From NCBI GenBank assembly GCA_036555445.1, contig DATBLH010000069.1, positions 1,339-65,338 on the forward strand: DNA of 64,000 nt, in the 5' to 3' direction. Below are positions 37,991 to 54,172 of this stretch, one piece after another (position 1 is the first letter of the stretch; the number at the start of each line of letters is the position of its first letter). Position numbers and translations under genes: made by a program. The notes below the pieces were generated by a model. That model made no database searches. It was not told the DNA's origin and was given only the letters and a program-made list of their open reading frames with translations. This stretch comes from Candidatus Limnocylindrales bacterium. GTDB taxonomy: Bacteria > Chloroflexota > Limnocylindria > Limnocylindrales > CSP1-4.

Positions 37991-39391
37991 TCAGGTCCGC
38001 TGCGTCTTCTCGGGCGGCGCCGGAGGCGCGAACAGCCAGGTTTCGGGGACGCCCCTCGGGCCGAGTGCTCCGAGCGACGTGCCATTCAGGGTGAACAGGG
38101 TCGCCCCCGACGACCCGGTGCGGACCTCGATCGTTTCCTGGGCGGTGAACGTGAGGGTCTTGCCGGCGGCGATCGTGCGCCCGCTGGCCCCGATCGACTC
38201 GGCGATCTTGCCGTCCACCCAGACCTTGAGCCAGGCCGGGCCGCCTCGCACGGTGAGCGTCAGGTTCACGCCCCGATAGGCGACCGTGACGGTCCGCTTG
38301 AGCGAGTTCGACTTGCGGTTCTCGGACGAGGCGGTAACGGTCAGCTCCCACCGCCCGGCGGTCAGCTCGAGCGGCGTGGAGTACGAGCCATCCTCGTGGA
38401 CGGCAACGCTCAACGGCTTCGGATCGGGTGTGGGGGGTGGCGGGCTGGCCGTCGTGGTCTGCTGGGTCGCCGGGCCGAGGTAGTGTGCAGAGACGACGAC
38501 GGTCGACGCGTTGGTCGTGCTTCCCTGGACCGGGATCGCCCCGTTCTCGAACGTTGCGCCGTCGGCCGGCTGGTCGATCGTCAGGGTCGGCGCCTCGATC
38601 ACCAGGAACGGCACCGTGATGTACACGGTCTCCGGGCTCTCGGCCTGCTTTCCGGTCTCGGGGTCGACGGCCGAGACGTCGAACTGGTTCTTGCCCCGCC
38701 GGAGCTCGACGGGGACAGCCCAGTCGCCGCTGCCGTCCGCCGACACCCGATACGGCTGCTCCCGTCCCGGGGTGTTGACCGTGATCGTGGCGCCCGGGAT
38801 CGACGTCCCACGCAGGACGTACGACGATTCGTCCTCGGCGACCGTGATCAGCGCGACCGAGGGCGTGGTGACCTCGAGCGTTGGGGGCTTGGCGAAGCGG
38901 AGGAGCTGCGCACCCAGATAGACGACGAATCCGAGCACCCCGACGGTGAGCAGCGCCGCGACGACGACGCCGGGCGAGAACACCAGGCCCTGCCGGGGCG
39001 CCTGGATCGGCCGCGGCACCACGATCGGCTCGCTCTCGCGGATCTCGCCGCGCTCGGTGCGCCACTGGTGGAGGACATCCTCGGGGTCGAGACCGAGGTA
39101 GAGGGCGTAGTTGCGGAGGAAGCCCTTCGTGTAGACCGCGCCCGGAAGCTCCTTCCAGTCGCCCCGCTCGAGCGCCGCCAGATACCGGGCCCGGATCTTC
39201 GTGTCCCGCTCCGCGCGATAGAGGTCGACTCCCTTGCGTTCGCGTGCCGCGTACAGCCGCTCGGGAAGTCCCGGGAGCGCCTCGGCGACCGAACCGCGCA
39301 TGCCGGACTCGGTCCCCCGGTCGCCGGCTGCCCGTCCCAGCTCGGCTCGTGGATCAGCTGGCGCTCGACGCACCTCGTGTCGCGTGGTCAT
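37991..39391 (-). CDS. RodZ-like HTH/transmembrane protein with C-terminal DUF4115
   Basis: HTH LYAARERKGVDLYRAERDTKIRARYLAALERGDW...VYTKGFLRNYALYLGLD, one TM segment, a beta-rich periplasmic region, and a C-terminal ...WLKVWVDG...TFTAQETIEVRTG (DUF4115-like). Confidence 0.75.
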   Translation of the reverse strand: MTTRHEVRRAPADPRAELGRAAGDRGTESGMRGSVAEALPGLPERLYAARERKGVDLYRAERDTKIRARYLAALERGDWKELPGAVYTKGFLRNYALYLGLDPEDVLHQWRTERGEIRESEPIVVPRPIQAPRQGLVFSPGVVVAALLTVGVLGFVVYLGAQLLRFAKPPTLEVTTPSVALITVAEDESSYVLRGTSIPGATITVNTPGREQPYRVSADGSGDWAVPVELRRGKNQFDVSAVDPETGKQAESPETVYITVPFLVIEAPTLTIDQPADGATFENGAIPVQGSTTNASTVVVSAHYLGPATQQTTTASPPPPTPDPKPLSVAVHEDGSYSTPLELTAGRWELTVTASSENRKSNSLKRTVTVAYRGVNLTLTVRGGPAWLKVWVDGKIAESIGASGRTIAAGKTLTFTAQETIEVRTGSSGATLFTLNGTSLGALGPRGVPETWLFAPPAPPEKTQRT

Positions 39392-41793
39392 GAGTCGTCC
39401 CCGTCCACCTCCTCGCCGCCCGTGCCCGCGACGTCGCGGCGGAGGACGACGCGGGCGTTCGAGCCGTCGAACGCGCCGATATAGCCTCGTGCCTCGAGCT
39501 GATCGATGATGCGCGCCGCCCGCGCATAGCCGATTCGAAGGCGCCTCTGGAGGAGTGACGCCGAGGCACGATCGTACTCCCGAATCACGTCCACGGCATC
39601 CGGCAGGAGCCGATCGGCTTCTTCGTCCGCGAGGTCGTCGATCGAGCCCGTGCCGTCCTCGTCGCTCTCGACGATCGACTGGTCGTAGTGCGGATCGTCG
39701 ATCTGGTCCTTCCAGTGCGCGACGATGCGGGCGATCTCCGGGTCCGACACGAATACGCCCTGGAGACGCATCGGACGTGGCAGGTCGGACGGCTGGTAGA
39801 GCATGTCACCGCGACCGATGAGGTCCTCCGCGCCCGGCGCGTCGAGGATCGTCCGGGAGTCGATCTGGGATGCCATCGCGAACGCGATCCGGGACGGGAA
39901 GTTCGCCTTGATCAGTCCGGTGACGACGTTGACCGAGGGCCGTTGGGTGGCCAGGACGAGGTGGATCCCGGTCGCCCTCGCCTTCTGGGCGAGTCTGACG
40001 ATCGGGTCCTCGACGTTCTTGCCCTCGCGCATCATCAGGTCGGCGAGCTCGTCCACGATGATCACGATGTAGGGCAGACGATCGGCGGGATCCGCACGCG
40101 ACTCGTTGTACGCGCGGATGTTGCGTGACGTGGCGCCGGCGAACCGCCGATAGCGCCCCTCCATCTCGTTGACGGCCCACTTCAGGGCGGCCTTTGCTCG
40201 ATCGGGCTCCGTGATCACCGGGACGAGCAGGTGTGGCAGACCGTTGTAGGCGGCCAGCTCGACCCGCTTGAGATCCATGAGGATCATCCGCACATCGTCC
40301 GGGCTCGCCTCGCACAGAAGGCTGGTGATCAGGGCGTTGACCATGACGCTCTTGCCGGAGCCGGTCGCCCCTGCGATCAGGAGGTGCGGCATCTTCGCCA
40401 GGTCGACCGCCTGTGCCTTGCCCGCGACGTCGCGTCCGAGCGCGAACGTGAGCGTCGAGCCGGACGCCTTGAAGTCCACCTCGTCGAGGATCCGCCGCAG
40501 GGCGACGAGGTTGAAGTCCTTGTTCGGAACCTCGACGCCAACTGCGCTCTTGCCAGGGATCGGTGCCTCGATCCGGAGCGATCGGGCCGCCAGGGCCATC
40601 GCCAGGTCGTCGGCGAGAGCCTCGATCCGGCTGATCTTGATGTCCGGTGCCGGCTGAACCTCGTACTGGGTCACGACCGGACCCGCGTTGCGACCGACGA
40701 TCTCGGCCGGGATGTCGAAGCCGGCCAGCTTGCGAACGATGATCTCCTCGTTCCGGTGATGGACGGCCTCCGCGCCGCCCGGGGTCGCGGGTGGCGGAAT
40801 GTCCTCGAGGAGCTCGAGCGGTGGCAGGACGTACTCCTGCTCGCGGGTCCGAGGCGAATCGGAGACGTCGGTCACGTCGTCGAACTCGGGGGTTGCGACC
40901 GCGGTTCCGACGCCGCGCGGGGCGGCGGGAACGAGGGTGGCGCCCGCCGCGCCCGACGGACTGGCTCTCGGTGGCGCGAACGTCGCCGAGACCGGTGCGC
41001 TCGATGGAACCGCGGACGGGATGCGAGCCTCCTCCGAGCGCTGGCCCCAGATCCCGGTTTGTCCCGGCGAACCGTCACCCGCGACGGGCGGCTGCCGGAC
41101 GGCGCCGCGATTGCGTGGCGAGCCGGGTGCCGCGCGGATCCCGCCGTCGGTTGGATCTCCGGGGCCGGGTCCCATGGCGCGCGGGTCGCGACGAACCGAG
41201 GACGCCGCCGCCGTGCCCAGCCAGCGAGCCGCGGTCGTTCCGGGTCGGACGAGATCGCGGAGCGGCAGGTTGAGCGCCAGCATCAGCCCCGCGGCCATCA
41301 GGGCAAGGAGCACCGCGAATGCTCCGGGCGCGGTCACGAGCGGCACGAGGATCGCTGCCAGCGCCTGGCCGATCCGGCCCCCACCACGCTCCACGTCGAA
41401 CACGGTGAGATCGAGGATCTCGAAGGCGCCCAGGAACGCCGCGAAGGCGATGGCGATCCCCGCCAGGGTCATGCCCCAGCCCGAGTTCGGGCGCTTGCCC
41501 GGGCCCCACTCGAGATACCAGCCCGCCGCGAGCAGGAGGAACGGCAGAAGCCAGCGTCCGGTCTCGAACCACGGGGCGATCGAGTCGCGCCACCAGTCCG
41601 TGAGCGAACCGTCGCCGGGCAGGATGAGCGCAATCAGCGTCGTCGCCCCGAGCACGAGCAGCACGATCCCCACCAGCGAGCGGGCGACCTCGGGTCCGAC
41701 CGCGGGCAGGGCGAGGATCCGCGGCAGGGTCGGTCCCCCACCCCGACGGGCTCGGGATGGACGGCGCGCCTGTGCGCGTCGTGCGCGGGCCAT
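39388..41793 (-). CDS. ftsK: DNA translocase FtsK
   Basis: 801 aa. N-terminal TM segments, a Pro/Ala linker, Walker A AGATGSGKSV, and a C-terminal gamma wHTH ...LLQRRLRIGYARAARIIDQLE. Confidence 0.9.
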   Translation of the reverse strand: MARARRAQARRPSRARRGGGPTLPRILALPAVGPEVARSLVGIVLLVLGATTLIALILPGDGSLTDWWRDSIAPWFETGRWLLPFLLLAAGWYLEWGPGKRPNSGWGMTLAGIAIAFAAFLGAFEILDLTVFDVERGGGRIGQALAAILVPLVTAPGAFAVLLALMAAGLMLALNLPLRDLVRPGTTAARWLGTAAASSVRRDPRAMGPGPGDPTDGGIRAAPGSPRNRGAVRQPPVAGDGSPGQTGIWGQRSEEARIPSAVPSSAPVSATFAPPRASPSGAAGATLVPAAPRGVGTAVATPEFDDVTDVSDSPRTREQEYVLPPLELLEDIPPPATPGGAEAVHHRNEEIIVRKLAGFDIPAEIVGRNAGPVVTQYEVQPAPDIKISRIEALADDLAMALAARSLRIEAPIPGKSAVGVEVPNKDFNLVALRRILDEVDFKASGSTLTFALGRDVAGKAQAVDLAKMPHLLIAGATGSGKSVMVNALITSLLCEASPDDVRMILMDLKRVELAAYNGLPHLLVPVITEPDRAKAALKWAVNEMEGRYRRFAGATSRNIRAYNESRADPADRLPYIVIIVDELADLMMREGKNVEDPIVRLAQKARATGIHLVLATQRPSVNVVTGLIKANFPSRIAFAMASQIDSRTILDAPGAEDLIGRGDMLYQPSDLPRPMRLQGVFVSDPEIARIVAHWKDQIDDPHYDQSIVESDEDGTGSIDDLADEEADRLLPDAVDVIREYDRASASLLQRRLRIGYARAARIIDQLEARGYIGAFDGSNARVVLRRDVAGTGGEEVDGDDS

Positions 41794-41795
41794 GC

Positions 41796-43460
41796 CTAGA
41801 CCTCGACCACCACCGGGAAGACCATCGGCCGGCGTTTCGTCTGCTCGTACAGGTAGCGCGACACGCCGTCCTTGATCTGGCTCTTGAGCAGGGCGATCTC
41901 GCTGATGTGGTCGCCCGGGTTGTCGATGGCCTCGATCACCCTCGCGGCGGTCTCCTCGATCAACGGGTCCTGCTCGTTGAGGCCCGTGAACCCGCGGGTA
42001 ATGATCTCCGGTCGCCCGATCACGTTTCCGGTCTGCTTGTCCACGGTCACCACGACGAGGAACATCCCATCGTTGGCAAGGGCGCGCCGGTCCCGGAGCA
42101 CGATCTCGCTCACGTCGCCGACCGAGAGGCCGTCGACGAAGGCATAGCCGGCCGCGACGGGCTGGCCGCGACGGGCCGATCCGTCCGGGAAGATCTCGAT
42201 GGGCGTCCCATTCTCGATGATGAACACATTCTCGGGGGCAACGCCGGTCTCTGTCGCGAGGCGCCCATGCTGGACCTGCATCCGGAACTCCCCGTGGATG
42301 GGGATGAAGTACCGGGGCTTGGTGAGCCCGAGCATCAGCTTCAGCTCCTCCTGGCTTGCATGTCCTGAGACGTGCGCGCGCTTGATGGTGTGGTAGTAGA
42401 CGTTCGCACCGGCCTTGAACAGGTTGTCGATCGTGCGGGCGACGTACTCCTCGTTACCGGGGATCGGGCTGGCGGAGACGATCACCGTATCTCCGGCCTG
42501 GATCTCGACGAACCGATGATCGCGATTCGCCATCCGCGCCAGGCCCGACATCGGTTCGCCCTGGGCGCCCGTGGTGGCGATCACGAGCTTCGCGTCGGGG
42601 TGATCCTTGATCCTGTCCTTGGACACGATCGTGGACGCGTCATAGGTCAGGTACCCGAGATCGGTCGCGATCCGGAAGTTCTGCTCCATGGACCGGCCGA
42701 TGACCGAGACGTTGCGACCCATCTCCGAGGCCGCGTCGAGGACCTGCTGGACGCGGGCGATGTTGCTGGCGAAGGTGGCCACGATGACCCGGCCGTCGAG
42801 TGGCTCCATGATCTCCCGGAACGCCTCGCCCACCGTCCGCTCGGACGGCGTATAGCCCGGGTTCTCCGCCCGGGTGGAGTCGGACAGGAGGCAGATCACC
42901 CCCTCCGCGCCGAGGCGGGCAAGGACGTGGAAGTCGGACAGCTTGCCATCGACCGGGGTGTGGTCGAACTTGAAGTCACCGGTGTGGACGACTGTGCCGA
43001 CGGGTGTACGGATGCCGACCCCCATCGCGTCCGGGATGGAGTGGCCGACCCGGAACGGGATGACGGTAAACGGCCCGATGGTGACCTCGTCACCAGGCTC
43101 GATCGCCAGCAGCGGATTGTTATGGAGCTTGTGTTCCTTGACCTTGTTGCCGAGCAGGCCACGGGCGAGCGTCGAGGCATAGACCGGCACGCCCGGGAAC
43201 TCGGGCAGCACGTACGGCAGGCCGCCCACGTGGTCCTCGTGGGCGTGGGTGATGATGAACGCCCGCACGCTCTCGCGACGTTCCTTGAGATAGGTCACGT
43301 CGGGAACGACGAGGTCGATCCCGAACATCTCCTCGTCCGGGAACATCAGCCCACAGTCGACGACGACGATGTCGTCGCCGAACTCGAACACGTACATGTT
43401 CTTGCCGATCTCGCCCACCCCGCCGAGGGGAATGATCCGAAGCGGCGTCTGTTCGGCCAT
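41796..43460 (-). CDS. rnj: ribonuclease J
   Basis: 554 aa. LRIIPLGGVGEIGKNMY and HAHEDHVGG metallo-beta-lactamase/beta-CASP motifs. Confidence 0.9.
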   Translation of the reverse strand: MAEQTPLRIIPLGGVGEIGKNMYVFEFGDDIVVVDCGLMFPDEEMFGIDLVVPDVTYLKERRESVRAFIITHAHEDHVGGLPYVLPEFPGVPVYASTLARGLLGNKVKEHKLHNNPLLAIEPGDEVTIGPFTVIPFRVGHSIPDAMGVGIRTPVGTVVHTGDFKFDHTPVDGKLSDFHVLARLGAEGVICLLSDSTRAENPGYTPSERTVGEAFREIMEPLDGRVIVATFASNIARVQQVLDAASEMGRNVSVIGRSMEQNFRIATDLGYLTYDASTIVSKDRIKDHPDAKLVIATTGAQGEPMSGLARMANRDHRFVEIQAGDTVIVSASPIPGNEEYVARTIDNLFKAGANVYYHTIKRAHVSGHASQEELKLMLGLTKPRYFIPIHGEFRMQVQHGRLATETGVAPENVFIIENGTPIEIFPDGSARRGQPVAAGYAFVDGLSVGDVSEIVLRDRRALANDGMFLVVVTVDKQTGNVIGRPEIITRGFTGLNEQDPLIEETAARVIEAIDNPGDHISEIALLKSQIKDGVSRYLYEQTKRRPMVFPVVVEV

Positions 43461-44260
43461 CAGAACATCGTCATCTGATCGGTGTCCACGGGGGGTTCCT
43501 CGACGGCACCCGCGATGCCCGGCGGTGTCACGTCCGGAACCAGGGATGCGACCGTCGTCGCCTGTTCGGTCCCCGACGCGCCGACCGCGACGGGAACGGG
43601 CGCCTCGAGCGGCATCCCTGCCTCGGAGGCGGGCACCGCCGACGCCGCCAGCGCATCTCGCTCGGCGCGGCCGCGTCGGGACTCCAGCAGCGTCACGGGA
43701 ATCCTCGCCGCGTCCTCGTAGCTCTCGCGCTCGACCGCCGGTGTCCGGAGGGCGGCCGCCGGGTGATACATCGCCAATGCGAGCGCATCACGGGCCCCGG
43801 TTGCCGGATCGACCGGACGGTTGGTGCCGTGAACCTGGCCGATGCGGGTGCCGGGCATGAACGTCCCCAGCGAGAACCTTCCGAGCGTCACGACCAGCGC
43901 AGGATCGAGAACTTCGAGCTGTCTCCGGAGATAGGGCGCACAGGCGGCGATCTCGTCCGGCTGAGGGTCCCGGTTGTCGGGCGGACGGCACTTCACGACA
44001 TTGGTGATGAACACGTCCTCACGCCGCCACCCGATCGAGGCCAGCAGCTTCACGAGCAGGTCGCCGGCGCGGCCGACGAATGGCCGGCCCTGGCGATCCT
44101 CGTTGAATCCCGGGCCCTCGCCCACGAATACGACCTCGGTCGACGGGTGGCCCTCGCCGGGCACCGCTCGCGTCCGGCCGGCCGCAAGGCGGCAGCGCGT
44201 GCAGTCCCGGACCTCGGCGGCGATCTCCTCGAGCGCCGCGCGGCGCTCGGCTTCGGTCAC
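43460..44260 (-). CDS. uracil-DNA glycosylase, family 4, with about 85-aa low-complexity C-terminal extension
   Basis: Start at GTG 44260 (GTGA overlap with the asd stop). CTRCRL Fe-S cysteines, GEGPGFNEDRQGRPFVGRAG, VKCRPP, MYHPAAALR. Confidence 0.85.
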   Translation of the reverse strand: MTEAERRAALEEIAAEVRDCTRCRLAAGRTRAVPGEGHPSTEVVFVGEGPGFNEDRQGRPFVGRAGDLLVKLLASIGWRREDVFITNVVKCRPPDNRDPQPDEIAACAPYLRRQLEVLDPALVVTLGRFSLGTFMPGTRIGQVHGTNRPVDPATGARDALALAMYHPAAALRTPAVERESYEDAARIPVTLLESRRGRAERDALAASAVPASEAGMPLEAPVPVAVGASGTEQATTVASLVPDVTPPGIAGAVEEPPVDTDQMTMF

Positions 44261-45333
44261 GCAACACCCTCGGCGACCGGCGTCCGCCTGGACGCGGCCC
44301 GAACCCACCCCCGTTGCAGCAGGACCTCGGCGATCTCCACAGCGTTCGTCGCAGCGCCCTTGCGCAGGTTGTCGGAGACGACCCAGAACGCGATCCCGCG
44401 CTCACCCGCGATCGACGGGTCCTGTCGCACCCGGCCGACGAACACCTCGTCACGCCCGGCGGCGATCGTGGCCAGGGGATAGGTGTGGGTCGCCGGGTCG
44501 TCCTGGACGATCACGCCGGGGACGGCTGCGAACAGCCGACGTGCCTCGTCGGGTGTCACCGGGTCCCGGGTCTCGACGTGGACCGCCTCGGAGTGGCTGA
44601 CGCGAACCGGGATCCGAACCGCGGTGCAGCTGATCCGGAGCTCCGGCAGATGGAGGATCTTGCGACTCTCGGTGACGACCTTCCACTCCTCGCGGGTGTA
44701 TCCGTTGGGCAGGAAGACGTCGATCTCCGGCAGGGCGTTGAAGGCGATCGGATGCGGGTACACCTCGGCCGTCGGCGCCTCGCCGGCGGTATCGGCCCGG
44801 ATCTGGCCGTCGAGCTCGCGCACGGCCTTCTGCCCGGTCCCCGACACCGACTGGTAGGTATCGACGACGACGCGCTCCAAGCCGACCGCATCGCGCAGGG
44901 CCATCAGGACGGGCGCCAGCTGCATCGTCGAGCAGTTCGGGTTGGCGACGATCCCCTCGTGCGCCTCGAGGTCGCCGGGGTTCACCTGGCTCACGACCAG
45001 CGGGATGCCGTCGACCATCCGCCATGCGGACGAGTTGTCGATCACGGTCGCTCCCCGATCGGCGGCCGCCGGAGCGAGCTCGCGCGAAGCATCGCCGCCC
45101 GCCGAGAACAGGGCGAGATCGACGCCGTCGAAGGAATCTGGTCCCGCAAGCCCGACCTCGACCGGGCGGCCGTCGACCTTCACGCTGGTTCCGGCCGAGC
45201 GCGCCGACGCGAGGAGGCGCAGTTCACCGATCGGAACGTCGCGCTCGAGCAGGACCTGGGTCATCGTCCGACCAACGGCACCGGTCGCCCCGACGACCGC
45301 AACGGTGAGGTTCTGGCGACGAATTCCGGGCAT
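44257..45333 (-). CDS. asd: aspartate-semialdehyde dehydrogenase
   Basis: Start at MPGIRRQNLTVAVVGATGAVGRTM (ATG 45333). ...IVANPNCSTMQL (active-site Cys)...SGTGQKAV. Confidence 0.9.
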   Translation of the reverse strand: MPGIRRQNLTVAVVGATGAVGRTMTQVLLERDVPIGELRLLASARSAGTSVKVDGRPVEVGLAGPDSFDGVDLALFSAGGDASRELAPAAADRGATVIDNSSAWRMVDGIPLVVSQVNPGDLEAHEGIVANPNCSTMQLAPVLMALRDAVGLERVVVDTYQSVSGTGQKAVRELDGQIRADTAGEAPTAEVYPHPIAFNALPEIDVFLPNGYTREEWKVVTESRKILHLPELRISCTAVRIPVRVSHSEAVHVETRDPVTPDEARRLFAAVPGVIVQDDPATHTYPLATIAAGRDEVFVGRVRQDPSIAGERGIAFWVVSDNLRKGAATNAVEIAEVLLQRGWVRAASRRTPVAEGVA

Positions 45334-45372
45334 GGTCCGACTCCGGTTCAGGAGATCGTCGGGCACGCGGCG

Positions 45373-45386: not shown

Positions 45387-45683
45387 TCAGGAAGGCTCCG
45401 GCCGCCGGGATCGGCGCTCCATCCACCGTTCCGGTGCCACGAGCGGCTCGAACCCGCCGTATCGCTCGTACAGGGTGGAGGCGTCGCGAGTCGCGAGCGC
45501 GAGGCGTCGGAGACCGTTCAATCTCGGATCGGCCACGACCGCTTCGACGAGTCGTGCCCCGACGCCGCGACCGCGCTCCGACTCGTCCACGAAGACGTCG
45601 CACAGCCAGCCAAACGTGGCCAGGTCGGTCACGACCCGGGCGAAGCCGACCTGACGGTTTCCACGCAGCGCGACGAAGCACAC
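45387..45683 (-). CDS. GNAT family N-acetyltransferase (as bounded by first canonical start; conserved N-terminus continues upstream without one)
   Basis: ...GFARVVTDLATFGWLCDVFVDESERGRGVGARLVEAVV (motif A). The same frame stays open upstream and encodes ...RISTDAAEIDFDWLHDALSTRAYWALGRSREQLQTAIEHS. Confidence 0.65.
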   Translation of the reverse strand: MCFVALRGNRQVGFARVVTDLATFGWLCDVFVDESERGRGVGARLVEAVVADPRLNGLRRLALATRDASTLYERYGGFEPLVAPERWMERRSRRPEPS

Positions 45684-45877: not shown

Positions 45878-48472
45878 TCAGCTCCCGACTGGTTCTTTGG
45901 CCAGGTGGCGCTGCATGGCCGCCTTGCGCGAGAGGTTGATCCGGCCCTGGCGATCGATCTCGATCACCACGACCATCACCTCGTCACCCACGGAGACCAC
46001 GTCCTCCACCGTTGGGACGTGGTAGTCGGCCAGCTCACCGATGCGGACCAGGCCTTCCTTGCCCGGCAGAATCTCGACGAACGCCCCAAAGCCCATGATC
46101 CGGGTGACCTTGCCCAGGTAGAGCGAACCGATCTCGACCTCGCGGGTCAGGCTTTCGATCCACTGGATCGCCTTGCGCGAGTTCTCGCCGGAGACGGCCG
46201 CGATCTCGACCGAGCCATCGTCCTCCACGTTGATCTCGGTGCCCGTCTCTTCCTGGATCTTGCGGATCATCGAGCCGCCCTTGCCGATGATCTCGCGGAT
46301 CTTTTCGGGGTTGATCTTGATCGTGATGATCCGTGGCGCGAACTCGCTCATGTCGGAGCGGGCTTCCGGGATCACTTCGGCCATCTTGTCGAGGATCGTC
46401 AGGCGGGCAGCGAGAGCCTGCTTGAGGCCGTCACGGATGATCGCCTCACTGATCCCCTGGACCTTGATGTCCATCTGGAGTGCCGTCACGCCATCCCGGG
46501 TGCCGGTCACCTTGAAGTCCATGTCACCGATCGAGTCCTCTTTGCCGAGGATGTCGGTGAGGACGACGAACCGGCCATCGGGCTCCGTGATCAGGCCCAT
46601 CGCCGCACCGGCGACCGGTGCCTTGATCGGAACGCCGGCGTCCATGAGGGCGAGCGTCGAGCCGCACGTCGAGGCCATCGACGTGGAGCCGTTCGACGTC
46701 ACGCACTCGCTCACGAGGCGGATGACGTACGGGAACTCCTCCTGGGCCGGCAGGACCGGGACGAGTGCCCGTTCGGCAAGGTGTCCATGGCCGATATCGC
46801 GCCGGCTGGGTCCACGCATCATCTTGTTCTCGCCCGTGCTGTAGGGCGGGAAGTTGTAGTGGTGGAGGTAGCGCTTCTCGGTCTCGGGACTGATCGTGTC
46901 GATCCGCTGGACATCGGACGACGCCCCGAGCGTGGCCACCGTCAGCGCCTGGGTCTCACCGCGGGTGAACAGCCCCGAGCCGTGGGCGCGCGGGATGAGC
47001 CCGACCTCGACCGTGATCGGCCGAATATCCGTCAGCCCGCGGCCGTCGATCCGGATCCCTTCGTCGAGGACCAACCGGCGGACCGTCTTCTTCTGGAGCA
47101 GGTTGAACAGGCCCTTGCTCACGCGCGCCTCGCGCCTTGCCGCCTCGAGCAGGCCGGCGGTGTCACCGCCGGTGCGGTTGGCACGGACGGCATCGGCGAT
47201 CGACTCGCGCAGGGCGGCGATGCGGCCGGGCAGGTTGTTCGCGAACCACAACAGCAGGTTCGCGGTCGCCTCGGCGTCCGGGAGGGCCCGGTGATTCTGC
47301 GTCAGGTCGATCCCGAAGAATCGCGACAGGGTGTCCAGGCGGTAGTTTTCGAGATCCGGGTAGCCCTCGCGGGCGATGACCAGTGTGTCCAGGTAGCGAC
47401 CCGGCTCGATCCGGGTGCCGTCGCCCAGGGCCGCCTCGAGGAAGCCCAGGTCGAAGCCGACCGAGTGGCCGACGACCAGCGCGTCGCCCACGAAGTCCAG
47501 GCACTGACGGGCCGCTTCCGCGGGTGACGGTGCTCCGGAGACGTCGGCGTCGGTGATGCCGTGCATCTGGTTGCCCACGATCGGCCGACCGGGATTCACG
47601 AACGTCGACCAACGTTCGGTGATGTCGCCGCCACGCACGCGGACGGCGGCCACCTCGACCAGGTCGGCCGCATTGGGGCTCGTCCCGGTGGTCTCGACGT
47701 CGACGACCACGAACTCGCCGCCCGCCTCGGTCGCGGCGACGAAGTCGAGGACCGACCCGGTGCCCGGCTCGAGGTACGGGAGGCGCTTGGGCTTGCCGAC
47801 CGCCTCGCGCAGGCGCTCCTGGAGCTCGACGACGGGCTGCAACGAGCGATGACCGAACAGGATGGCCTCCGCCATCACGTCCTCAGGCAGCAGCTTCGCA
47901 CCGGCCTCGACCATCATGATCGCGTCGCGGGTGCCGGCAACGATCAGGTCGAGCTCGGACTCCTTGAGCTGGGCGTGGGTCGGGTTGATGACGAATTCGC
48001 CGTCGATGCGCCCGACGCGAACCGACGCGATCGGTCCGTTGAACGGGATCTCGCTGATCGTCAGCGCCGCCGAGGCCGCGATCGTGCCGATGACGTCCGG
48101 GTTGTTCTCCTGATCCGTGGACAGGACGGTGACGACCAGCTGGACGTCGTCCTTGTAGCCCTCGGGGAAGAGCGGACGGATCGGCCGGTCCGTCTGGCGG
48201 GCGGCGAGGATCGCGTTCTCCGACGGGCGCGCCTCACGCTTGATGAAGCCACCCGGGATCTTGCCGGCCGCGTACATCCGCTCCTCGAAGTCGACAGTAA
48301 GCGGGAAGAAGTCCAGGCCGGGCCGCGGCTCGGACCGGTTCGCGGTGCCGAGCACCATCGTGTCGCCGTAGCGGACGGTGACGGCGCCGCCGGCCAGGCG
48401 GGCGAGCCGGCCGGTCTCGACGGTCAGCGTGCGACCACCGAATTCGATCTCGTAGCGTGTGGGTTCGGGCAC
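45878..48472 (-). CDS. pnp: polyribonucleotide nucleotidyltransferase (PNPase) carrying an inserted exonuclease domain
   Basis: 864 aa. PH1 (FFPLTVDFEERMYAAGKIPGGFIKREARPSE), PH2 (IRIDGRGLTDIRPI...GSGLFTRGETQAL...GDMDFKV), KH (IGKGGSMIRKI) and S1 (YLGKVTRIMGFGAFVEI) are collinear with E. coli PNPase. GTG start with GGAGGA 10 nt upstream. Confidence 0.9.
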   Translation of the reverse strand: MPEPTRYEIEFGGRTLTVETGRLARLAGGAVTVRYGDTMVLGTANRSEPRPGLDFFPLTVDFEERMYAAGKIPGGFIKREARPSENAILAARQTDRPIRPLFPEGYKDDVQLVVTVLSTDQENNPDVIGTIAASAALTISEIPFNGPIASVRVGRIDGEFVINPTHAQLKESELDLIVAGTRDAIMMVEAGAKLLPEDVMAEAILFGHRSLQPVVELQERLREAVGKPKRLPYLEPGTGSVLDFVAATEAGGEFVVVDVETTGTSPNAADLVEVAAVRVRGGDITERWSTFVNPGRPIVGNQMHGITDADVSGAPSPAEAARQCLDFVGDALVVGHSVGFDLGFLEAALGDGTRIEPGRYLDTLVIAREGYPDLENYRLDTLSRFFGIDLTQNHRALPDAEATANLLLWFANNLPGRIAALRESIADAVRANRTGGDTAGLLEAARREARVSKGLFNLLQKKTVRRLVLDEGIRIDGRGLTDIRPITVEVGLIPRAHGSGLFTRGETQALTVATLGASSDVQRIDTISPETEKRYLHHYNFPPYSTGENKMMRGPSRRDIGHGHLAERALVPVLPAQEEFPYVIRLVSECVTSNGSTSMASTCGSTLALMDAGVPIKAPVAGAAMGLITEPDGRFVVLTDILGKEDSIGDMDFKVTGTRDGVTALQMDIKVQGISEAIIRDGLKQALAARLTILDKMAEVIPEARSDMSEFAPRIITIKINPEKIREIIGKGGSMIRKIQEETGTEINVEDDGSVEIAAVSGENSRKAIQWIESLTREVEIGSLYLGKVTRIMGFGAFVEILPGKEGLVRIGELADYHVPTVEDVVSVGDEVMVVVIEIDRQGRINLSRKAAMQRHLAKEPVGS
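47228..47722 (-). other. DEDDh 3'-5' exonuclease (DnaQ/RNase T-like) domain nested in pnp (aa about 251-415)
   Basis: Exo I FVVVDVETTG (D258, E260), Exo II VVGHSVGFDLGFL (D341) and Exo III NHRALPDAEATANLL (H394, D399), with canonical spacing (about 83 and about 53 aa). In frame, no stops, GC3 like the flanks. Confidence 0.75.
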
Positions 48473-48501: not shown

Positions 48502-48586
48502 GGCGACGACCCGCGGCAGGGGCCACGGCCGGGACGGTCGTTGCGCGATCGGACCCCGGCGATGCCGGGGCCCTCGGGCAGCGATC

Positions 48587-48856
48587 CTAGCGGCGAAGAC
48601 CGAGCCGTGCGATCACGGCCCGGTAACGCGCGTTGTCCTTCCTCACCAGGTAGGCGAGGAGGCGTCGGCGCTGGCCCACGAGCTTGAGGAGGCCGCGGCG
48701 CGAATGGTTGTCCTTCGGGAAGCTTCGGAGATGGTCCGTGAGTCCCTTGATCCGCTCCGTCAGGAGTGCGATCTGGACCTCCGGGGAACCGGTATCGCCC
48801 TCTTTCGTGGCGTACCCGGTCATGATCTCCTGCTTCTGTTCCCGCGCGAGCGGCAC
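48587..48856 (-). CDS. rpsO: 30S ribosomal protein S15
   Basis: Start placed at GTG 48856 (GGAGGA 4 nt upstream), giving the canonical 89 aa. ...[17 protein letters not shown]...[20 protein letters not shown]...ARLGLRR. Confidence 0.9.
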
Positions 48857-48922
48857 TCGGTCCTCCGACACGATCTGTCTGTGATTCTGCAATCCGTTCT
48901 GCTTATGACCGGCGGGATGGTA

Positions 48923-49732
48923 TCACACGACCTCGCTCACCCCGGACCCCGGAAAGGCAACCCGCAGGCGGGCTCCGGCCACAATCCGATCGATCCGAAT
49001 CGAGCCGCGCTCGACCGTCGCCCGCGCGTCCAGGCCCCTCGAACGGCGCCGCGCGGCCGGAAACGCCGCCACGGTGGCTCGATAGGATCCGTCGGGCGGC
49101 AGCGCCACGGGCATGCCGAAGCGAAGCCCGCCGTCATCCGGGTCGCCCACGACGGCATGTGAACGGCCGAGGAGCCGGCGGGCCTCCGCCAGGTCGCCAT
49201 CCGCGATCGCGCTCCGGATCGCAGAGCTGCTGATCGCGCGACCATCCACGATCAGCGGCCGGGCGATCGCGACCTCGTAGCGCAGCCGGCCCGATCGCCC
49301 GAGCTCGGCGACGGCGGCAGGCGTTCCCCGCCGTTCGAACCCGAACGCGGCGTCTGGCGTCATGACGAACCCCGCCAGATCGATCCGCCCGGCGATCCCA
49401 CGAACGAACGCGTCGTAGGGCGTGGACCGGAGTCGCTCGTCGAAGTGCTCGACCACGACGATCTCGACTCCCTCGCGTCCCAGCCGCCACAACCGCTCCT
49501 CGGGGTCGAGCAGGAGTGGCGGGGCGCTGCCCCGGATGACCTCGTCCGGATGATGGTCGAAGGTGATCACGGCCGCCCGCGCCCTCCATGCCGCCGCCTG
49601 CCGGACCAGGCGGCGAAGGAGGTGTCGGTGCCCCCGGTGGAGGCCGTCGAAGACGCCGATCGCGACCGCGAGACGCCCGGCCCTTGCCGGCAACCTCGCC
49701 ACGCCCGCCACGACCTCCGGGTGGTCGATCAT
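48923..49732 (-). CDS. ribF: FAD synthetase (RibF) with short, apparently degenerate C-terminal riboflavin-kinase-like domain
   Basis: Start at MIDHPEVV (ATG 49732), not ORF-track 50164. FMN-adenylyltransferase motif GVFDGLHRGHRHLL. In the C-terminal 79 aa, GMPVAL replaces G-F-P-T-A-N. Confidence 0.8.
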   Translation of the reverse strand: MIDHPEVVAGVARLPARAGRLAVAIGVFDGLHRGHRHLLRRLVRQAAAWRARAAVITFDHHPDEVIRGSAPPLLLDPEERLWRLGREGVEIVVVEHFDERLRSTPYDAFVRGIAGRIDLAGFVMTPDAAFGFERRGTPAAVAELGRSGRLRYEVAIARPLIVDGRAISSSAIRSAIADGDLAEARRLLGRSHAVVGDPDDGGLRFGMPVALPPDGSYRATVAAFPAARRRSRGLDARATVERGSIRIDRIVAGARLRVAFPGSGVSEVV

Positions 49733-49763
49733 CCGTCGGCGGCGTCGATCATCCGTCGGCGGC
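49724..49763. repeat. perfect 20-bp x2 tandem duplication spanning the truB stop / ribF start
   Basis: GTCGATCATCCGTCGGCGGC occurs at 49724-49743 and again at 49744-49763. On the coding strand each copy reads GCCGCCGACGGATGATCGAC and contains an ATGA. Confidence 0.95.
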
Positions 49764-50687
49764 CACGAACACCTTGTCCGGGGCGAGTCGCCCACCCCGG
49801 GCAGAGGCCATGCCGACCAGCCGCCCGTCGGGTGCCACGAGCCGGATCGGCCCCGTCGCGTCGGAGGGGGCGCCACCGCCCGGGGTGATGAAGCGTCCCC
49901 GTGCGACGTCCTGGACCTCGGCTTCCGAGAGCTCCACCACGGGAAGCGCTTCCAGCCCCGCGTCAGGAGGGAGGAGGAGTTCCGCGAACGCGGCCGCGCC
50001 CTCGCCAGCCGCGCCCCGGACCGCATCGACGGAGACGGCATGCTCGATCCGGAACGGACCGCTGGCGGTCCGGACCAGGGCCCCGAGATAGGCGGCACTG
50101 CCGACGGCGACCCCGAGGTCGCGCGCGAGCGCGCGGACGTAGGTCCCGGCCGAACATTCGACATCGATCACCGCGATCGGGCGTTCCAGATCCTGGTCAT
50201 TCCAGTCCACGAGGCCGATCGCGTGGATCGTGACCGCGCGCTCCGGGATCTTCACCGCCTCGCCCGCGCGGGCTCGCGCGTAGGCGCGCCGGCCGGCGAT
50301 CTTGATCGCCGAATGGGCCGGGGGTTGCTGCGCGATCTCTCCGACCATGTTCGCGAGGGCCGTTTCCACCGTTGGCCTCCCGGCAGGGGCCGGTGCGGGT
50401 TGCAGCTCGCCCTCGAGGTCATCGGTCGTGGACGACGCACCGAAGCACACGGTCGCGCGGTACGCCTTCCGATCGCGTGCGTGGTACTCGACGAGCCGGG
50501 TGGCCGACCCGAGGAACAGCGGCAGGACACCGGTCGCGAACGGATCCAGCGTCCCGCCATGCCCGATCCGGCGGGTACCCGCAAGACGCCGGACGAGCGC
50601 GACGACGTCGTGCGAGGTCGGCCCAGCCGGCTTGTCGACCACGAGGACACCGTCCGGGCCCGAGTGACGACCCGGGTCGTGCGCCAT
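49749..50687 (-). CDS. truB: tRNA pseudouridine(55) synthase
   Basis: GVLVVDKPAGPTSHDVV...GHGGTLDPFATGVL (catalytic Asp motif). Confidence 0.9.
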   Translation of the reverse strand: MAHDPGRHSGPDGVLVVDKPAGPTSHDVVALVRRLAGTRRIGHGGTLDPFATGVLPLFLGSATRLVEYHARDRKAYRATVCFGASSTTDDLEGELQPAPAPAGRPTVETALANMVGEIAQQPPAHSAIKIAGRRAYARARAGEAVKIPERAVTIHAIGLVDWNDQDLERPIAVIDVECSAGTYVRALARDLGVAVGSAAYLGALVRTASGPFRIEHAVSVDAVRGAAGEGAAAFAELLLPPDAGLEALPVVELSEAEVQDVARGRFITPGGGAPSDATGPIRLVAPDGRLVGMASARGGRLAPDKVFVAADG

Positions 50688-50692
50688 ACGCG

Positions 50693-51709
50693 CTACCTGC
50701 GGACGTGGGCGATGAGGCGCCGAGCCTCCGCCAGGACCGGCTCCGGTGCCTCGGCCAGCGGGAGCGCAATCGTGGCGCCGGCGGCACGAGCATGTCCCCC
50801 ACCCCCGAAGCGCCCGGTGACCACCGTGGCATCAACGCCGCCGGGTCGGGTGCGGACGCTGATCCGGGTCCCCGGCCCGGCCTCCTTGAACAGGATCGCC
50901 ACCTCGGCCGTCTCCGCCTGGGCGAGGAGATCGACGATCCCCTCGCTCTCGGCGGGTGACGTTCCCGTCACGCGGTGGTCGTCGTCGTCGAGCGTGGACC
51001 ACACGAGCCTGCCATCCAGGTCGCTGCGGAGTCGCTCGAGCACACGACCGAACAGCCGGAGCTGCCGGTCGGGCTTGGAGCGGTAGATCCGGCGCGTGAT
51101 GTCGGCCAGTGGGGCACCGGCATCCACCAGGGCCGCGGCGACCCTGAGGGTGCGGGAGGTCGCGTTCGGGTGGTTGAACGCGGCCGTGTCCATGACGATT
51201 CCGGCCATCAGCGCCGTCGCCAACCCACCGTCGCGCAGGTCGAGCGAGCAGCCGAGGCGGAGGGCCAGGAGGGCGACCATCTCGCACGTCGCCGCGCTCG
51301 CAGGATCGATCCAGTCCGGGGGTCCCGTGTTGGCATTCGAGGCGTGGTGATCGATGACAACCCGGGGCATGGCCTCGAGACGGGCGCGATGGCGATCCAT
51401 CACCGAGCCGGTCCGGTCGACCGGTCCGTCCGAGATCACGAGCAGGTCGTACTCGGCGTCGGGGTCGAGGTCATGGCGGACGGTCTCGATCCCGGGCACG
51501 AACCCGTACAGTGACGGGACGGGGTCGCTCGAGACGGGCGTCGCTCGTCCACCGAGCGCCTCGATCAGCCAGCACACCCCGAGCGACGCCCCGAGGGTGT
51601 CCGCGTCAGGGTTCTCGTGCGTCAGGGCGAGGACGTTCCTGGCTCTCCGAAGCGCGGTGACAAGCGTTTCCGGGATCGCGGCGACGTCACCCGCGAGCTC
51701 GTCGATCAC
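50693..51709 (-). CDS. nrnA: DHH-family phosphoesterase (NrnA-like oligoribonuclease / pAp phosphatase)
   Basis: 338 aa. ...LTHENPDADTLGASLG...VIDHHASN (DHH)...GGGHARAAGA (DHHA1 GGGH). Confidence 0.8.
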   Translation of the reverse strand: MIDELAGDVAAIPETLVTALRRARNVLALTHENPDADTLGASLGVCWLIEALGGRATPVSSDPVPSLYGFVPGIETVRHDLDPDAEYDLLVISDGPVDRTGSVMDRHRARLEAMPRVVIDHHASNANTGPPDWIDPASAATCEMVALLALRLGCSLDLRDGGLATALMAGIVMDTAAFNHPNATSRTLRVAAALVDAGAPLADITRRIYRSKPDRQLRLFGRVLERLRSDLDGRLVWSTLDDDDHRVTGTSPAESEGIVDLLAQAETAEVAILFKEAGPGTRISVRTRPGGVDATVVTGRFGGGGHARAAGATIALPLAEAPEPVLAEARRLIAHVRR

Positions 51710-52233
51710 CGACGCCGCGTCCCCGGGCGACGAGCGCGACCACCGTTGCGCGGACGGTGTCGTCCGGCGCGCCGGCCGGGCCGTTGAGCATCGCCCACCG
51801 GGCCCGGGACCTCCGGGGCATCACCCTCGAGCGGCAGCCGAGGGATCGGCGTGGGCAGGGATTCGGCCGACGCTTCGCTCGCGTCCGGGTCGTGACCCTC
51901 CTCGAGCTCCTGAAGCAGCTGCAGGACCCGGGTCCCCCGCTCGGCCGAGTCGTCGAGACGGACGTGGAATTCGGGGATTCGCTTGATGCGCAGCCGGCCG
52001 CCGAGTGCGCGCCGGACGAACGGCATCGCGTGCTCGAGCGCCGCGATCGTGGCGTCCCGCTCCGCGGGCTGGCCGATGACGCTCACCCAGACGCGCGCAT
52101 GGCGCAGATCGGGCGTCGTCTCGACATCGGTGACCGTGGCGAAGCCGACCCGGGGATCGGCGATCTCGCGTGCGAGGATTGCCCCGATCTCCTGCCGCAG
52201 CAGCTCGTCGACCCGTTCGGTCCGCTGGCTCAT
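51706..52233 (-). CDS. rbfA: ribosome-binding factor A with basic C-terminal tail
   Basis: Start at MSQRTERVDELLRQEIGAIL (ATG 52233), not ORF-track 52773. ...VTDVETTPDLRHARVWVSV...IPEFHVRLDDS. Confidence 0.85.
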   Translation of the reverse strand: MSQRTERVDELLRQEIGAILAREIADPRVGFATVTDVETTPDLRHARVWVSVIGQPAERDATIAALEHAMPFVRRALGGRLRIKRIPEFHVRLDDSAERGTRVLQLLQELEEGHDPDASEASAESLPTPIPRLPLEGDAPEVPGPVGDAQRPGRRAGRHRPRNGGRARRPGTRRR

Positions 52234-52267
52234 GCCGCGGGGAAATCGTGACCCGAAGACGTGCCGA

Positions 52268-54172
52268 TCACGCCGTGACGGCGCGACTGACCGTCTGGGT
52301 GGTGAAGCACTCGATGATGTCGCCCTCGGCGACGTCCGTGAAGCTCTCCAACCCGATTCCACACTCGAAGTTCTGGGCCACCTCGCGGACGTCGTCACGG
52401 AAGCGTCGGAGCGACGAGATCCGGTCCGTGGCAACCACCTTGCCGCCGCGCCAGATCCGGGCACTGCCGCGAACGATCCGCCCATCGGTGACGAACGAGC
52501 CCGCGACGACCTGGTTCTTGCCCACCCGGAACACCTGGCGGACTTCCGCTCGGCCCTCGATGACCTCGACCTCTTCCGGTTCGAGGAGACCCTTGAGCGC
52601 GGCGTCGATGTCGTCGGTGAGCTTGTAGATGATGTCGTAGAGGCGGACGTCCACACCCTCCGCCTCGGCCGCGCGCCGGGCCGTGTCGGTGATCCGGGTG
52701 TTGAACCCGACCACGATCGCATCCGACGCCGAAGCGAGCAGGATGTCGTTGTCGGTGATGTCGCCGGCGGCATCGTGGAGGACGTTGATCCGGACGTCGT
52801 CCGTGCTCAGCTGCTCGAGCGCGTGCGTGATCGCGCCCAGCGAACCCGAGACATCTGCCTTGAGGATGATCCGGAGCTCCTTGGCCTGGCCGGCCTGGAT
52901 CTGGCGATACAGGTCTTCGAGCGTGGCACGCCCGCTGCCGTCGCCGCTCCGCGCGGACGCCTCGGCGCGCCGCTCCTCCACCCGCGTTCGGGCCTCCTTC
53001 TCATCGGCCACGACGCGTAGGACGTCACCGGCCTGGGGCACGTCCGAGAGCCCGAGGATGACCGCGGCGGTAGCCGGGCCGGCCTTCGGCATCCGCTTGC
53101 CCTTTTCGTTCTCGAGAGCCCGGACCTTGCCGAACGTCTCGCCGACGACGATCACATCGCCCACCCGCAGGGTTCCGTTCTGGACGATCACCGTGGCCAC
53201 GGGACCGCGGCGGGCGTCGAGCTCGGCCTCGATGATCGTGCCCACGGCCGGCCGCTTCGGGTTTGCCTTGGGATCGACCAGGGCGTCCGAGGTGATGAGC
53301 ACCGTGTCGAGGAGGTCGTCGATCCCCTCGCGTGTGCGCGCCGAAACGGCGACGAGCGGGACGTCGCCGCCGTATTCCTCGATCACCACGCCGTGCTCGG
53401 AGAGCCCGGTCTTCGCGCGGTCGGGATTGGCGTCGGCCTTGTCGATCTTGTTGAGGGCGACCACGATCGGCACCTTGGCCGCGCGCGCATGGTCGATCGC
53501 CTCGAGCGTCTGGGGCATCACGCCGTCGTCGGCGGCGACCACGATCACGGCAACGTCGGTGACCTTGGCGCCGCGCGCCCGCATCGACGTGAACGCCTCG
53601 TGGCCCGGGGTGTCGAGGAACACGATCCGGCGATCGTTCTTCGTCACTTCGGAGGCGCCGATGTGCTGGGTGATCCCACCGCGCTCGCCGGCCGCGATCT
53701 CGGTGGTCCGGATCGCGTCCAGGAGACTCGTCTTGCCGTGATCGACATGACCCATCACGGTCACGATCGGAGCCCGCGACTGGAGGAGCGACGGATCCTC
53801 TTCCTCGAACAGGAGCTCCTTGGTCGCCTCGGGGACGGCACCGTCACCGTTGGTGTCGGCCGTGGCCGCCGCCACCGGGGCGTTCTCGGCCACCTCGAAC
53901 CCCAGCTCAGACGCGACGAGCGAGGCCGTGTCGCGGTCGATGAGCTGGTTGATCGTGGCGAAGATGCCGCTCTTGATCAGCTCGCGGATCACATCCGCCG
54001 GGTTGACCTGCAGCAGCTCCGCGAGCTCCTTGACGGTGATCGTCGCGGGCAGCTCGATCGCGCCGCGCTCCTTCGGATCGGCGACCTGGACCGGCGACGC
54101 GACCGCGCCGTCGCGGCGCTGCGGCTTGCGAGGCCCGCGACGGCCCCTGGTGCCGCTTCTACTCCTGGCCAC
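52268..54172 (-). CDS. infB: translation initiation factor IF-2
   Basis: 634 aa. GTG start with GAAGGAGGA 4 nt upstream. G-domain VMGHVDHGKTSLLD, DTPGHEAF, NKID. Confidence 0.9.
   Translation of the reverse strand: MARSRSGTRGRRGPRKPQRRDGAVASPVQVADPKERGAIELPATITVKELAELLQVNPADVIRELIKSGIFATINQLIDRDTASLVASELGFEVAENAPVAAATADTNGDGAVPEATKELLFEEEDPSLLQSRAPIVTVMGHVDHGKTSLLDAIRTTEIAAGERGGITQHIGASEVTKNDRRIVFLDTPGHEAFTSMRARGAKVTDVAVIVVAADDGVMPQTLEAIDHARAAKVPIVVALNKIDKADANPDRAKTGLSEHGVVIEEYGGDVPLVAVSARTREGIDDLLDTVLITSDALVDPKANPKRPAVGTIIEAELDARRGPVATVIVQNGTLRVGDVIVVGETFGKVRALENEKGKRMPKAGPATAAVILGLSDVPQAGDVLRVVADEKEARTRVEERRAEASARSGDGSGRATLEDLYRQIQAGQAKELRIILKADVSGSLGAITHALEQLSTDDVRINVLHDAAGDITDNDILLASASDAIVVGFNTRITDTARRAAEAEGVDVRLYDIIYKLTDDIDAALKGLLEPEEVEVIEGRAEVRQVFRVGKNQVVAGSFVTDGRIVRGSARIWRGGKVVATDRISSLRRFRDDVREVAQNFECGIGLESFTDVAEGDIIECFTTQTVSRAVTA

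Follow-up and report, generated by a model that had tools for sequence, protein, structure and literature searches.

A predicted DnaQ/PolC-type DEDDh exonuclease domain nested within the helical domain of the polynucleotide phosphorylase of Limnocylindria

Can polynucleotide phosphorylase (PNPase), one of the best-studied RNA-decay enzymes and one of the least variable in architecture, carry a second and chemically different 3'-5' nuclease within its own polypeptide? The question is raised by a pnp gene in a 64,000-nt window (the whole stretch of DNA analysed here) from a Candidatus Limnocylindrales bacterium (assembly GCA_036555445.1, contig DATBLH010000069.1, positions 1,339-65,338 of the forward strand). 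The gene (45878..48472, minus strand) begins with GTG and encodes 864 aa as one open reading frame (ORF), without internal stop or frameshift, as a preliminary description of the locus had read it. Its product is an exact match to GenBank HEY7736581.1, whose source is a Candidatus Limnocylindrales metagenome-assembled genome (MAG). Solved PNPases have 705-784 aa, which is consistent with the canonical length of about 700-740 aa assumed in that description. By its sequence the protein can be assigned to the PNPase family and its insert to the DEDDh/DnaQ-like superfamily, and the product is most likely a trimeric enzyme in which a phosphorolytic 3'-5' exonuclease activity is paired with a hydrolytic one.

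The domain content of the protein is that of a complete PNPase with one addition. A profile search of the 864-aa protein, of the kind proposed in the preliminary description, returned two RNase_PH and two RNase_PH_C matches, RNase_T (PF00929), KH and S1. The PNPase equivalog model TIGR03591 scored 959.6 bits (cut-off 525.05), in two stretches split by the insert, and the PNPase model NF008805 scored 954.8 bits (cut-off 471). At aa 255-407 the PF00929 profile was fully covered (positions 1-164 of 164, E = 5.6e-27, 95.7 bits, cut-off 24). All parts of the gene lie on the minus strand. The first RNase PH-like core (PH1, aa 1-235, 47768..48472), recognised by RNase_PH and RNase_PH_C, corresponds to residues 4-237 of the Escherichia coli enzyme, and it is followed by a 5' junction (aa 236-250, 47723..47767) that comprises the end of PH1 and a first short helix of the helical domain. 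Next comes the predicted DEDDh 3'-5' exonuclease domain of DnaQ/PolC type (aa 251-415, 47228..47722, limits that had been given exactly), identified by PF00929, TIGR00573, NF005906 and the PolC structure 9qpc, and then the rest of the PNPase alpha-helical domain (aa 416-480, 47033..47227). The catalytic RNase PH-like core (PH2, aa 481-700, 46373..47032), whose phosphorolytic-site residues align with those of E. coli, the KH domain (aa 716-773, 46154..46327; PF00013, E = 2.7e-11) and the S1 domain (aa 779-850, 45923..46138; PF00575, E = 1.2e-17) complete the protein. In the alignment with E. coli PNPase (7ogk), query residues 4-236 match 4-237 and query residues 455-855 match 296-695, so that the stretch between the PH domains is 218 residues long against 58 in E. 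coli, a net gain of some 160 aa. Both the Pfam order and the alignment bear out the claimed collinearity of PH1, PH2, KH and S1 with E. coli PNPase, and the same order is found in the Staphylococcus aureus and cyanobacterial enzymes.

Where exactly does the insert sit? It had been placed between the two PH domains and ahead of the whole helical domain; the former part stands, the latter has to be corrected. In an AlphaFold2 monomer model built from the alignment of 54 family members, a short helix (residues 239-249) precedes the exonuclease fold, the Exo III helix extends without a break into the helical domain (a single helix, 396-434), and further helices of that domain follow at 438-449 and 453-471. 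Residues 241-480, the exonuclease included, are modelled with a predicted local distance difference test score (pLDDT) of 84-95, and 83-95 is given for the remainder of the helical domain (aa 416-480). These modelled helices, in agreement with the cyanobacterial PNPase 8zaw, which aligns continuously from query residue 407 on, place the insert inside the alpha-helical domain, past its first short helix and before its second. The helical domain is present, but interrupted and divergent. Its Pfam model (PF03726) matched with its C-terminal part only (positions 54-80, at aa 452-478), at 24.5 bits for a cut-off of 24.6. A Foldseek search with the whole model returned only canonical PNPases, and the fused architecture occurred in no solved structure. 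In published E. coli structures, KH/S1 and the helical domain occupy opposite faces of the ring, the latter next to a side pore that leads to the PH2 site. The helical domain contributes to a pore that opens another path to the active site, believed to be used by nucleoside diphosphates (NDPs) and phosphate (PMC2723993). By homology, three DEDDh domains would decorate the ring face distal to the RNA entry portal, beside the side pores.

Both catalytic centres, to judge from their residues, are intact and conserved. The Exo I residues D258-V259-E260 (47693..47701, in VVVDVETTG), the Exo II aspartate D341 (47450..47452, in GH[S/N]VGFD) and the Exo III motif H394-x4-D399 (47276..47293, HRALPD) were singled out in the preliminary description, and in the alignments they indeed coincide with catalytic positions in the PolC exonuclease, the DinG exonuclease and DnaQ epsilon; the H394-x4-D399 pattern makes the domain a DEDDh one. 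We followed residue conservation in a set of 80 and a set of 54 sequences, which overlap. D258, E260, D341 and H394 are invariant (80/80 and 54/54), and D399 is present in 80/80 and 53/54 (133/134 together), the sole exception being a D399H replacement. On the phosphorolytic side, R557/R558, S596-T597-S598, D646, D652 and K654, equivalent to R398/R399, S437-439, D486, D492 and K494 of E. coli, are invariant in the 54 family members, and the S-T-S triplet is also found at the S437-439 position in 8zaw. In the PH1 channel loop F76-I77-K78-R79 (the FFRR loop of E. coli), the last three residues are invariant and the first is F or Y in the same 54 sequences. A phosphorolytic and a DEDDh site are thus predicted to coexist in one polypeptide, as had been proposed.

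The fused architecture is neither rare nor young. A 230-aa query spanning both junctions matched at least 238 species-representative genomes. In the 80 loci listed, nearly all from Limnocylindria, both junctions are covered, with 72-81% identity. A full, uninterrupted ORF of about 864 aa was found in 65 of 79 loci, from independent assemblies and different projects, and contig ends interrupt most of the other 14. The database matches listed (thousands of candidates were scored) comprise several hundred entries with the fused architecture; more than 200 further clusters are full-length, at 858-878 aa, each with PF00929 as well as the PNPase domains. The architecture occurs in soil lineages and also in Ca. 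Limnocylindrus, the type genus, which is planktonic. This genus diverges most (overall identity about 69%, 56% across the junction region) and has the same 864-aa architecture. The segment between the PH domains measures 217-222 aa in all 54 aligned members. On this sampling of sequences, the fused architecture appears common to the class Limnocylindria (Chloroflexota).

The G+C content at third codon positions (GC3) amounts to 0.897 for the insert, against 0.903 for the remainder of the gene. The ratio of nonsynonymous to synonymous substitution rates (dN/dS) is 0.19 in PH1, 0.24 in the DEDDh insert, 0.17 in PH2 and 0.19 in KH plus S1; it rises to 0.51 in the 5' junction (aa 236-254) and to 0.42 in the helical linker. 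The 5' junction is also the least conserved segment (identity 0.63). The insert is therefore maintained under purifying selection. Its insertion into the PNPase of Limnocylindria happened long ago, in line with the earlier remark that its codon usage resembles that of the flanks and does not suggest a recent event.

Public records of this gene are often defective. Many calls contain frameshifts or are cut short, and their Arg/Pro-rich tails are out of frame (database hits P0001-P0120); frameshifted fragments have been deposited as 'exonuclease domain-containing protein, partial'. A first search, which gave only matches of up to 484 aa, had raised the prospect of a split gene in relatives; this was rejected after the alignment showed frameshifted or truncated calls and full-length searches gave intact clusters. 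A few short contigs with the chimeric pnp (loci L013, L020, L027 and L080) have been assigned to MAGs of Verrucomicrobiia, Actinomycetota, Thermomicrobiales or Anaerolineaceae. This is probably misbinning, and the chimeric pnp could help to recognise contigs of Limnocylindria.

What kind of DEDDh domain has been captured? Among PDB sequences, the closest relative of the insert is the PolC exonuclease (9qpc, E = 1.5e-26, 96 bits), followed by the DinG exonuclease (63 bits), DnaQ (8h18, 45.5 bits), Cas2-DEDDh (43 bits), DnaQ epsilon (about 42 bits), ExoX (28 bits) and RNase T (about 20 bits; chains at 18-22 bits, E from 8e-4 to 0.02). Entry 9qpc has Ala at both positions aligned with D258 and E260, and we read it from its sequence as an exonuclease-dead construct. 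The top NCBIfam model for the insert is the exonuclease plus GIY-YIG type NF005906 (158 bits), followed by DinG and PolC models, and no RNase T model is among the 25 listed of the 29 NCBIfam families matched. The epsilon-family domain model TIGR00573 was passed (75.2 bits with the whole protein, 79.9 bits with the insert alone, cut-off 71.5). The dnaQ equivalog TIGR01406 was failed (75-80 bits, cut-off 222.7) and the other free-standing dnaQ equivalogs were far below their cut-offs too; the Joint Genome Institute (JGI) name 'DNA polymerase III epsilon subunit family exonuclease' thus holds for the domain alone. On these scores the insert is best placed in the DnaQ/PolC branch, not in the RNase T/Orn branch. 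Of the 'DnaQ/RNase T-like' label used in the preliminary description we thus retain DnaQ, made more precise as DnaQ/PolC-like, and reject RNase T (about 20 bits against 96 for PolC). An Orn/REXO2 identity was likewise rejected, since no Orn or REXO2 chain was detected at E <= 10 in the PDB sequence search, which leaves an Orn-like way of working unaffected.

Relatives of the insert were also sought exhaustively among 1.84 billion representatives. In the best 150 of 30,327 matches, the nearest non-PNPase relatives (40-50% identity) have FAN1-HTH+VRR_NUC, GIY-YIG, DinG-helicase and PolC architectures. The same 150 include no independent PNPase-DEDDh fusion from elsewhere, and more distant ones could lie lower. 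No second DEDDh copy that might be a donor paralogue was found within the window. The PolC exonuclease is itself nested, within the PHP domain, so the DnaQ/PolC module is known to tolerate internal insertion. We also noted, among the representative matches, proteins with two or three tandem related DEDDh domains (P0130, P0135, P0155, P0159, P0165 and P0172; P0130, for instance, has 1045 aa and three copies), a multi-exonuclease architecture unrelated to PNPase.

What could a hydrolytic module do in a PNPase? By homology with the solved enzymes, the protein would assemble into the trimeric ring typical of PNPases. Its three phosphorolytic sites would be entered by way of the central channel, from the KH/S1 side, and three DEDDh sites for metal-dependent hydrolysis would lie on the other face, on which the side pore to the PH2 site is lined by the helical domain. 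We lean, with slightly better than even confidence, towards a module that works on RNA in cis, clearing what phosphorolysis leaves behind or cannot handle. It would act on RNA 3' ends in cis with PNPase and degrade the short limit oligonucleotides released by PNPase on the exit side; possibly, it would also take RNA ends that phosphorolysis handles poorly, or take over when phosphate is limiting. A precedent exists in the PNPase-SUV3 complex, which leaves tetra- and pentanucleotides that the DEDD enzyme REXO2 scavenges and whose build-up inhibits the degradosome (PMC7261184). The Limnocylindria enzyme would then combine in one polypeptide what is elsewhere divided between PNPase and oligoribonuclease/REXO2, or between the ring of the eukaryotic exosome and its hydrolytic partners. 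The roles envisaged in the preliminary description, trimming of 3' ends or a function at DNA ends, were suggestions of the same conditional kind.

Several points weigh against an RNA-directed function in cis. The nearest relatives of the insert by sequence are DNA-directed (PolC proofreading, DinG, exonuclease-GIY-YIG, VRR-NUC fusions, DnaQ epsilon and Cas2-DEDDh), so the substrate could be DNA or RNA-DNA hybrids. The same cluster holds a DHH/DHHA1 gene (50693-51709, minus strand, 338 aa), between rbfA and truB and five genes upstream of pnp, whose product is a candidate NrnA-like nanoRNase (Pfam DHH 38 bits, DHHA1 39 bits), and nanoRNA clearance may thus already be covered. Its match to NF053633, the model for the bifunctional oligoribonuclease/pAp phosphatase NrnA, is weak (77 bits, cut-off 350), but it also weakens the idea that the insert replaces a missing nanoRNase. 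One cluster representative, P0353, carries the D399H replacement. Finally, the PH cores of the structure model, built from a shallow alignment of closely related members, are of low confidence (mean pLDDT 65).

The first of these points leads to the alternative that survives best, although we hold it to be rather unlikely: that the embedded domain is a 3'-end exonuclease for DNA or RNA-DNA hybrids, with a role in repair or at R-loops and not in bulk RNA decay. Activities on single-stranded DNA and repair phenotypes have been reported for bacterial PNPases themselves. By the scores given above the insert falls into the DNA-directed DnaQ branch (96 bits for PolC down to 28 for ExoX, as against about 20 for RNase T), the best NCBIfam models are of the exonuclease plus GIY-YIG, DinG and PolC types, and the nearest non-PNPase relatives have repair-type architectures. 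A related enzyme, the DinG exonuclease of Bacillus subtilis, prefers single-stranded DNA and degrades the RNA strand of hybrids (PMC12525004). However, DEDDh chemistry often accepts both sugars, so that ancestry does not fix the substrate, and the host protein is an RNA-decay enzyme with KH, S1 and the phosphorolytic site intact. Its gene stands directly downstream of rpsO, which encodes ribosomal protein S15 (48587..48892, minus strand; TIGR00952, 126 bits), in the order nusA-infB-rbfA-DHH-truB-ribF-rpsO-pnp, and rpsO precedes the fused pnp in all 61 related loci with full flanks. With rpsO adjoining and the canonical nusA-to-pnp cluster, the gene is the housekeeping pnp of its Chloroflexota host. 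The neighbourhood offers no specific link to repair either, the uracil-DNA glycosylase gene three positions downstream being a matter of ordinary local synteny.

A bolder version of the RNA-directed reading, which is speculative and in our opinion unlikely, would make the Limnocylindria PNPase a bacterial, single-chain counterpart of the exosome holoenzyme. RNA entering by the KH/S1 pore and the central channel could be handed either to the PH2 sites or to the DEDDh sites on the far face. The enzyme would then switch between phosphorolysis, which conserves energy, and phosphate-independent hydrolysis, as might happen when phosphate limits growth in oligotrophic lakes and soils, or it would finish its substrates to mononucleotides with no need of a separate nanoRNase.

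One may also ask whether the DEDDh fold was kept as a non-catalytic module, for example as a platform binding nucleic acids or nucleotides, as a lid that closes the side pore or as a surface on which partners dock. Its location in a domain thought to affect the access of NDPs and phosphate (PMC2723993) and the member with D399H would fit such a role. We judge it very unlikely, since pseudo-enzymes normally lose their acidic ligands; here the five catalytic residues are conserved throughout both sequence sets save for that member, complete Exo I, II and III motifs match those of active enzymes, and the dN/dS of the insert resembles that of the catalytic PH domains.

That the fusion is an artefact or a recent event (a chimeric assembly, a pair of genes joined by a frameshift or a recent mobile insertion) is hardly credible at all and was rejected: the many truncated or frameshifted database entries and the few short contigs binned to other phyla are outweighed by identical junctions and a constant inter-PH length in 65 full-length ORFs from independent assemblies, which exclude a chimera, as well as by the more than 200 clusters of uniform length, the GC3 and purifying selection reported above, the spread from soil to Ca. 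Limnocylindrus, and a Pfam scan free of intein or transposase signatures.

The immediate surroundings of the gene also deserve description. Between rpsO and pnp, a G+C-rich hairpin (48551-48573, minus strand; GGGCCCCGGC-AUCG-CCGGGGUCC) starts 13 nt past the rpsO stop codon, and the entire 136-nt intergenic region has a folding energy of -65.5 kcal/mol (z = -1.95). The hairpin may be a terminator, an attenuator or a processing site, like the rpsO-pnp leader of E. coli. Rfam at gathering thresholds returned nothing in the window, this hairpin included. Directly downstream of pnp is a short ORF for a GNAT acetyltransferase (45387-45683, minus strand, 98 aa) that matches only the C-terminal part of GNAT profiles. 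It recurs in 7 of the 61 related loci, as against 54 of 61 for asd, and is possibly a truncated gene of variable occurrence. Beyond it lie asd (44257-45366), the family-4 uracil-DNA glycosylase gene (43460-44308) and, as the fourth gene downstream of pnp, that of RNase J (41796-43460, minus strand, 554 aa; NF047419, 670 bits), followed by FtsK (39388-41793, minus strand). Two major RNA-decay nucleases, PNPase and RNase J, are thus encoded less than 6 kb apart.

Upstream, two mechanically called ORFs, ribF (48923-50164, minus strand, 413 aa) and rbfA (51706-52773, minus strand, 355 aa), are over-extended at their N-termini, the family matches starting at aa 153 and aa 181, respectively. The ribF match covers profile positions 5-201 of 325, which is the FAD-synthetase half only, and about 68 aa remain for a riboflavin-kinase domain that usually needs about 125 aa; this half may be truncated or divergent.

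How new is this protein? The preliminary description knew of no PNPase with this architecture. No paper describing a PNPase-DEDDh fusion was found by full-text searching, with subscription journals largely outside its reach, and to that extent the statement holds; the protein itself is already catalogued in databases, as 'polyribonucleotide nucleotidyltransferase' or as 'DNA polymerase III epsilon subunit family exonuclease'. The architecture is real, conserved and public, and thus uncharacterised rather than unseen. This exposes a problem of annotation, the same protein being named a plain PNPase or an epsilon-family exonuclease, or being deposited as partial fragments. A bacterial class that is abundant in both soils and lakes appears to have retained throughout, in its ring enzyme and under purifying selection, a second 3'-5' nuclease of different chemistry. 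If active, the protein would be a natural fusion of a phosphorolytic and a hydrolytic exonuclease and a new use of the PolC/DnaQ proofreading fold. It would provide a tractable bacterial model for the cooperation of PH rings with hydrolytic partners, as in exosome-Rrp6/Rrp44 and PNPase-Orn/REXO2, and may hint that RNA turnover has become adapted to scarce phosphate.

Compared with canonical bacterial PNPases (TIGR03591; 7ogk/3gcm, 5yjj and 8zaw), the Limnocylindria enzyme has the same PH1-helical-PH2-KH-S1 order, the same active-site residues and the same rpsO-pnp operon, with about 40% identity to the E. coli enzyme by Foldseek and 707-723 bits to those of E. coli and S. aureus. The canonical enzymes differ in being devoid of the second nuclease domain of about 160 residues inside the helical domain, and we found an enzymatic domain at this position neither in any solved PNPase returned by the search nor in any description. 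The eukaryotic exosome is likewise a ring of PH domains with an S1/KH cap and coupled hydrolytic 3'-5' exonucleases, Rrp6 and Rrp44, the former belonging to the DEDD superfamily. Its ring is catalytically inert, its partners are separate subunits, and Rrp6 is a DEDDy enzyme located near the cap. The Limnocylindria ring is predicted, in contrast, to keep phosphorolysis and to bear a covalently nested DEDDh domain on the face opposite the cap.

The proofreading exonuclease of PolC (9qpc, 2p1j) is the closest sequence relative of the insert, with aligned DEDDh residues and a nested position of its own in the PHP domain, but its host is a replicative DNA polymerase and its substrate a DNA primer terminus, whereas here the host is an RNA phosphorylase. 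The DinG exonuclease-helicase (8zef), Cas2-DEDDh (8fy9) and exonuclease-GIY-YIG proteins (NF005906) show the same DEDDh module supplying a host with 3'-end trimming; these are terminal fusions to proteins of DNA metabolism and not an internal insertion into an RNA-decay enzyme. A further parallel is that of PNPase and Orn in E. coli, or PNPase-SUV3 and REXO2 in humans, in which a phosphorolytic ring is likewise combined with a DEDDh hydrolase that clears products of 2-5 nt, the accumulation of which inhibits PNPase (PMC7261184). These are separate polypeptides, and the insert has no detectable homology to Orn or REXO2 and an NrnA-like gene nearby. In the RNA degradosome of Caulobacter crescentus, RNase E recruits both PNPase and RNase D, which brings PNPase and a DEDD-family exonuclease into one RNA-decay machine (PMC4245959); a scaffold joins the two there non-covalently, and RNase D is a DEDDy enzyme. 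By analogy with these systems, the fused PNPase of Limnocylindria may work like a covalent version of pairings that are elsewhere non-covalent.

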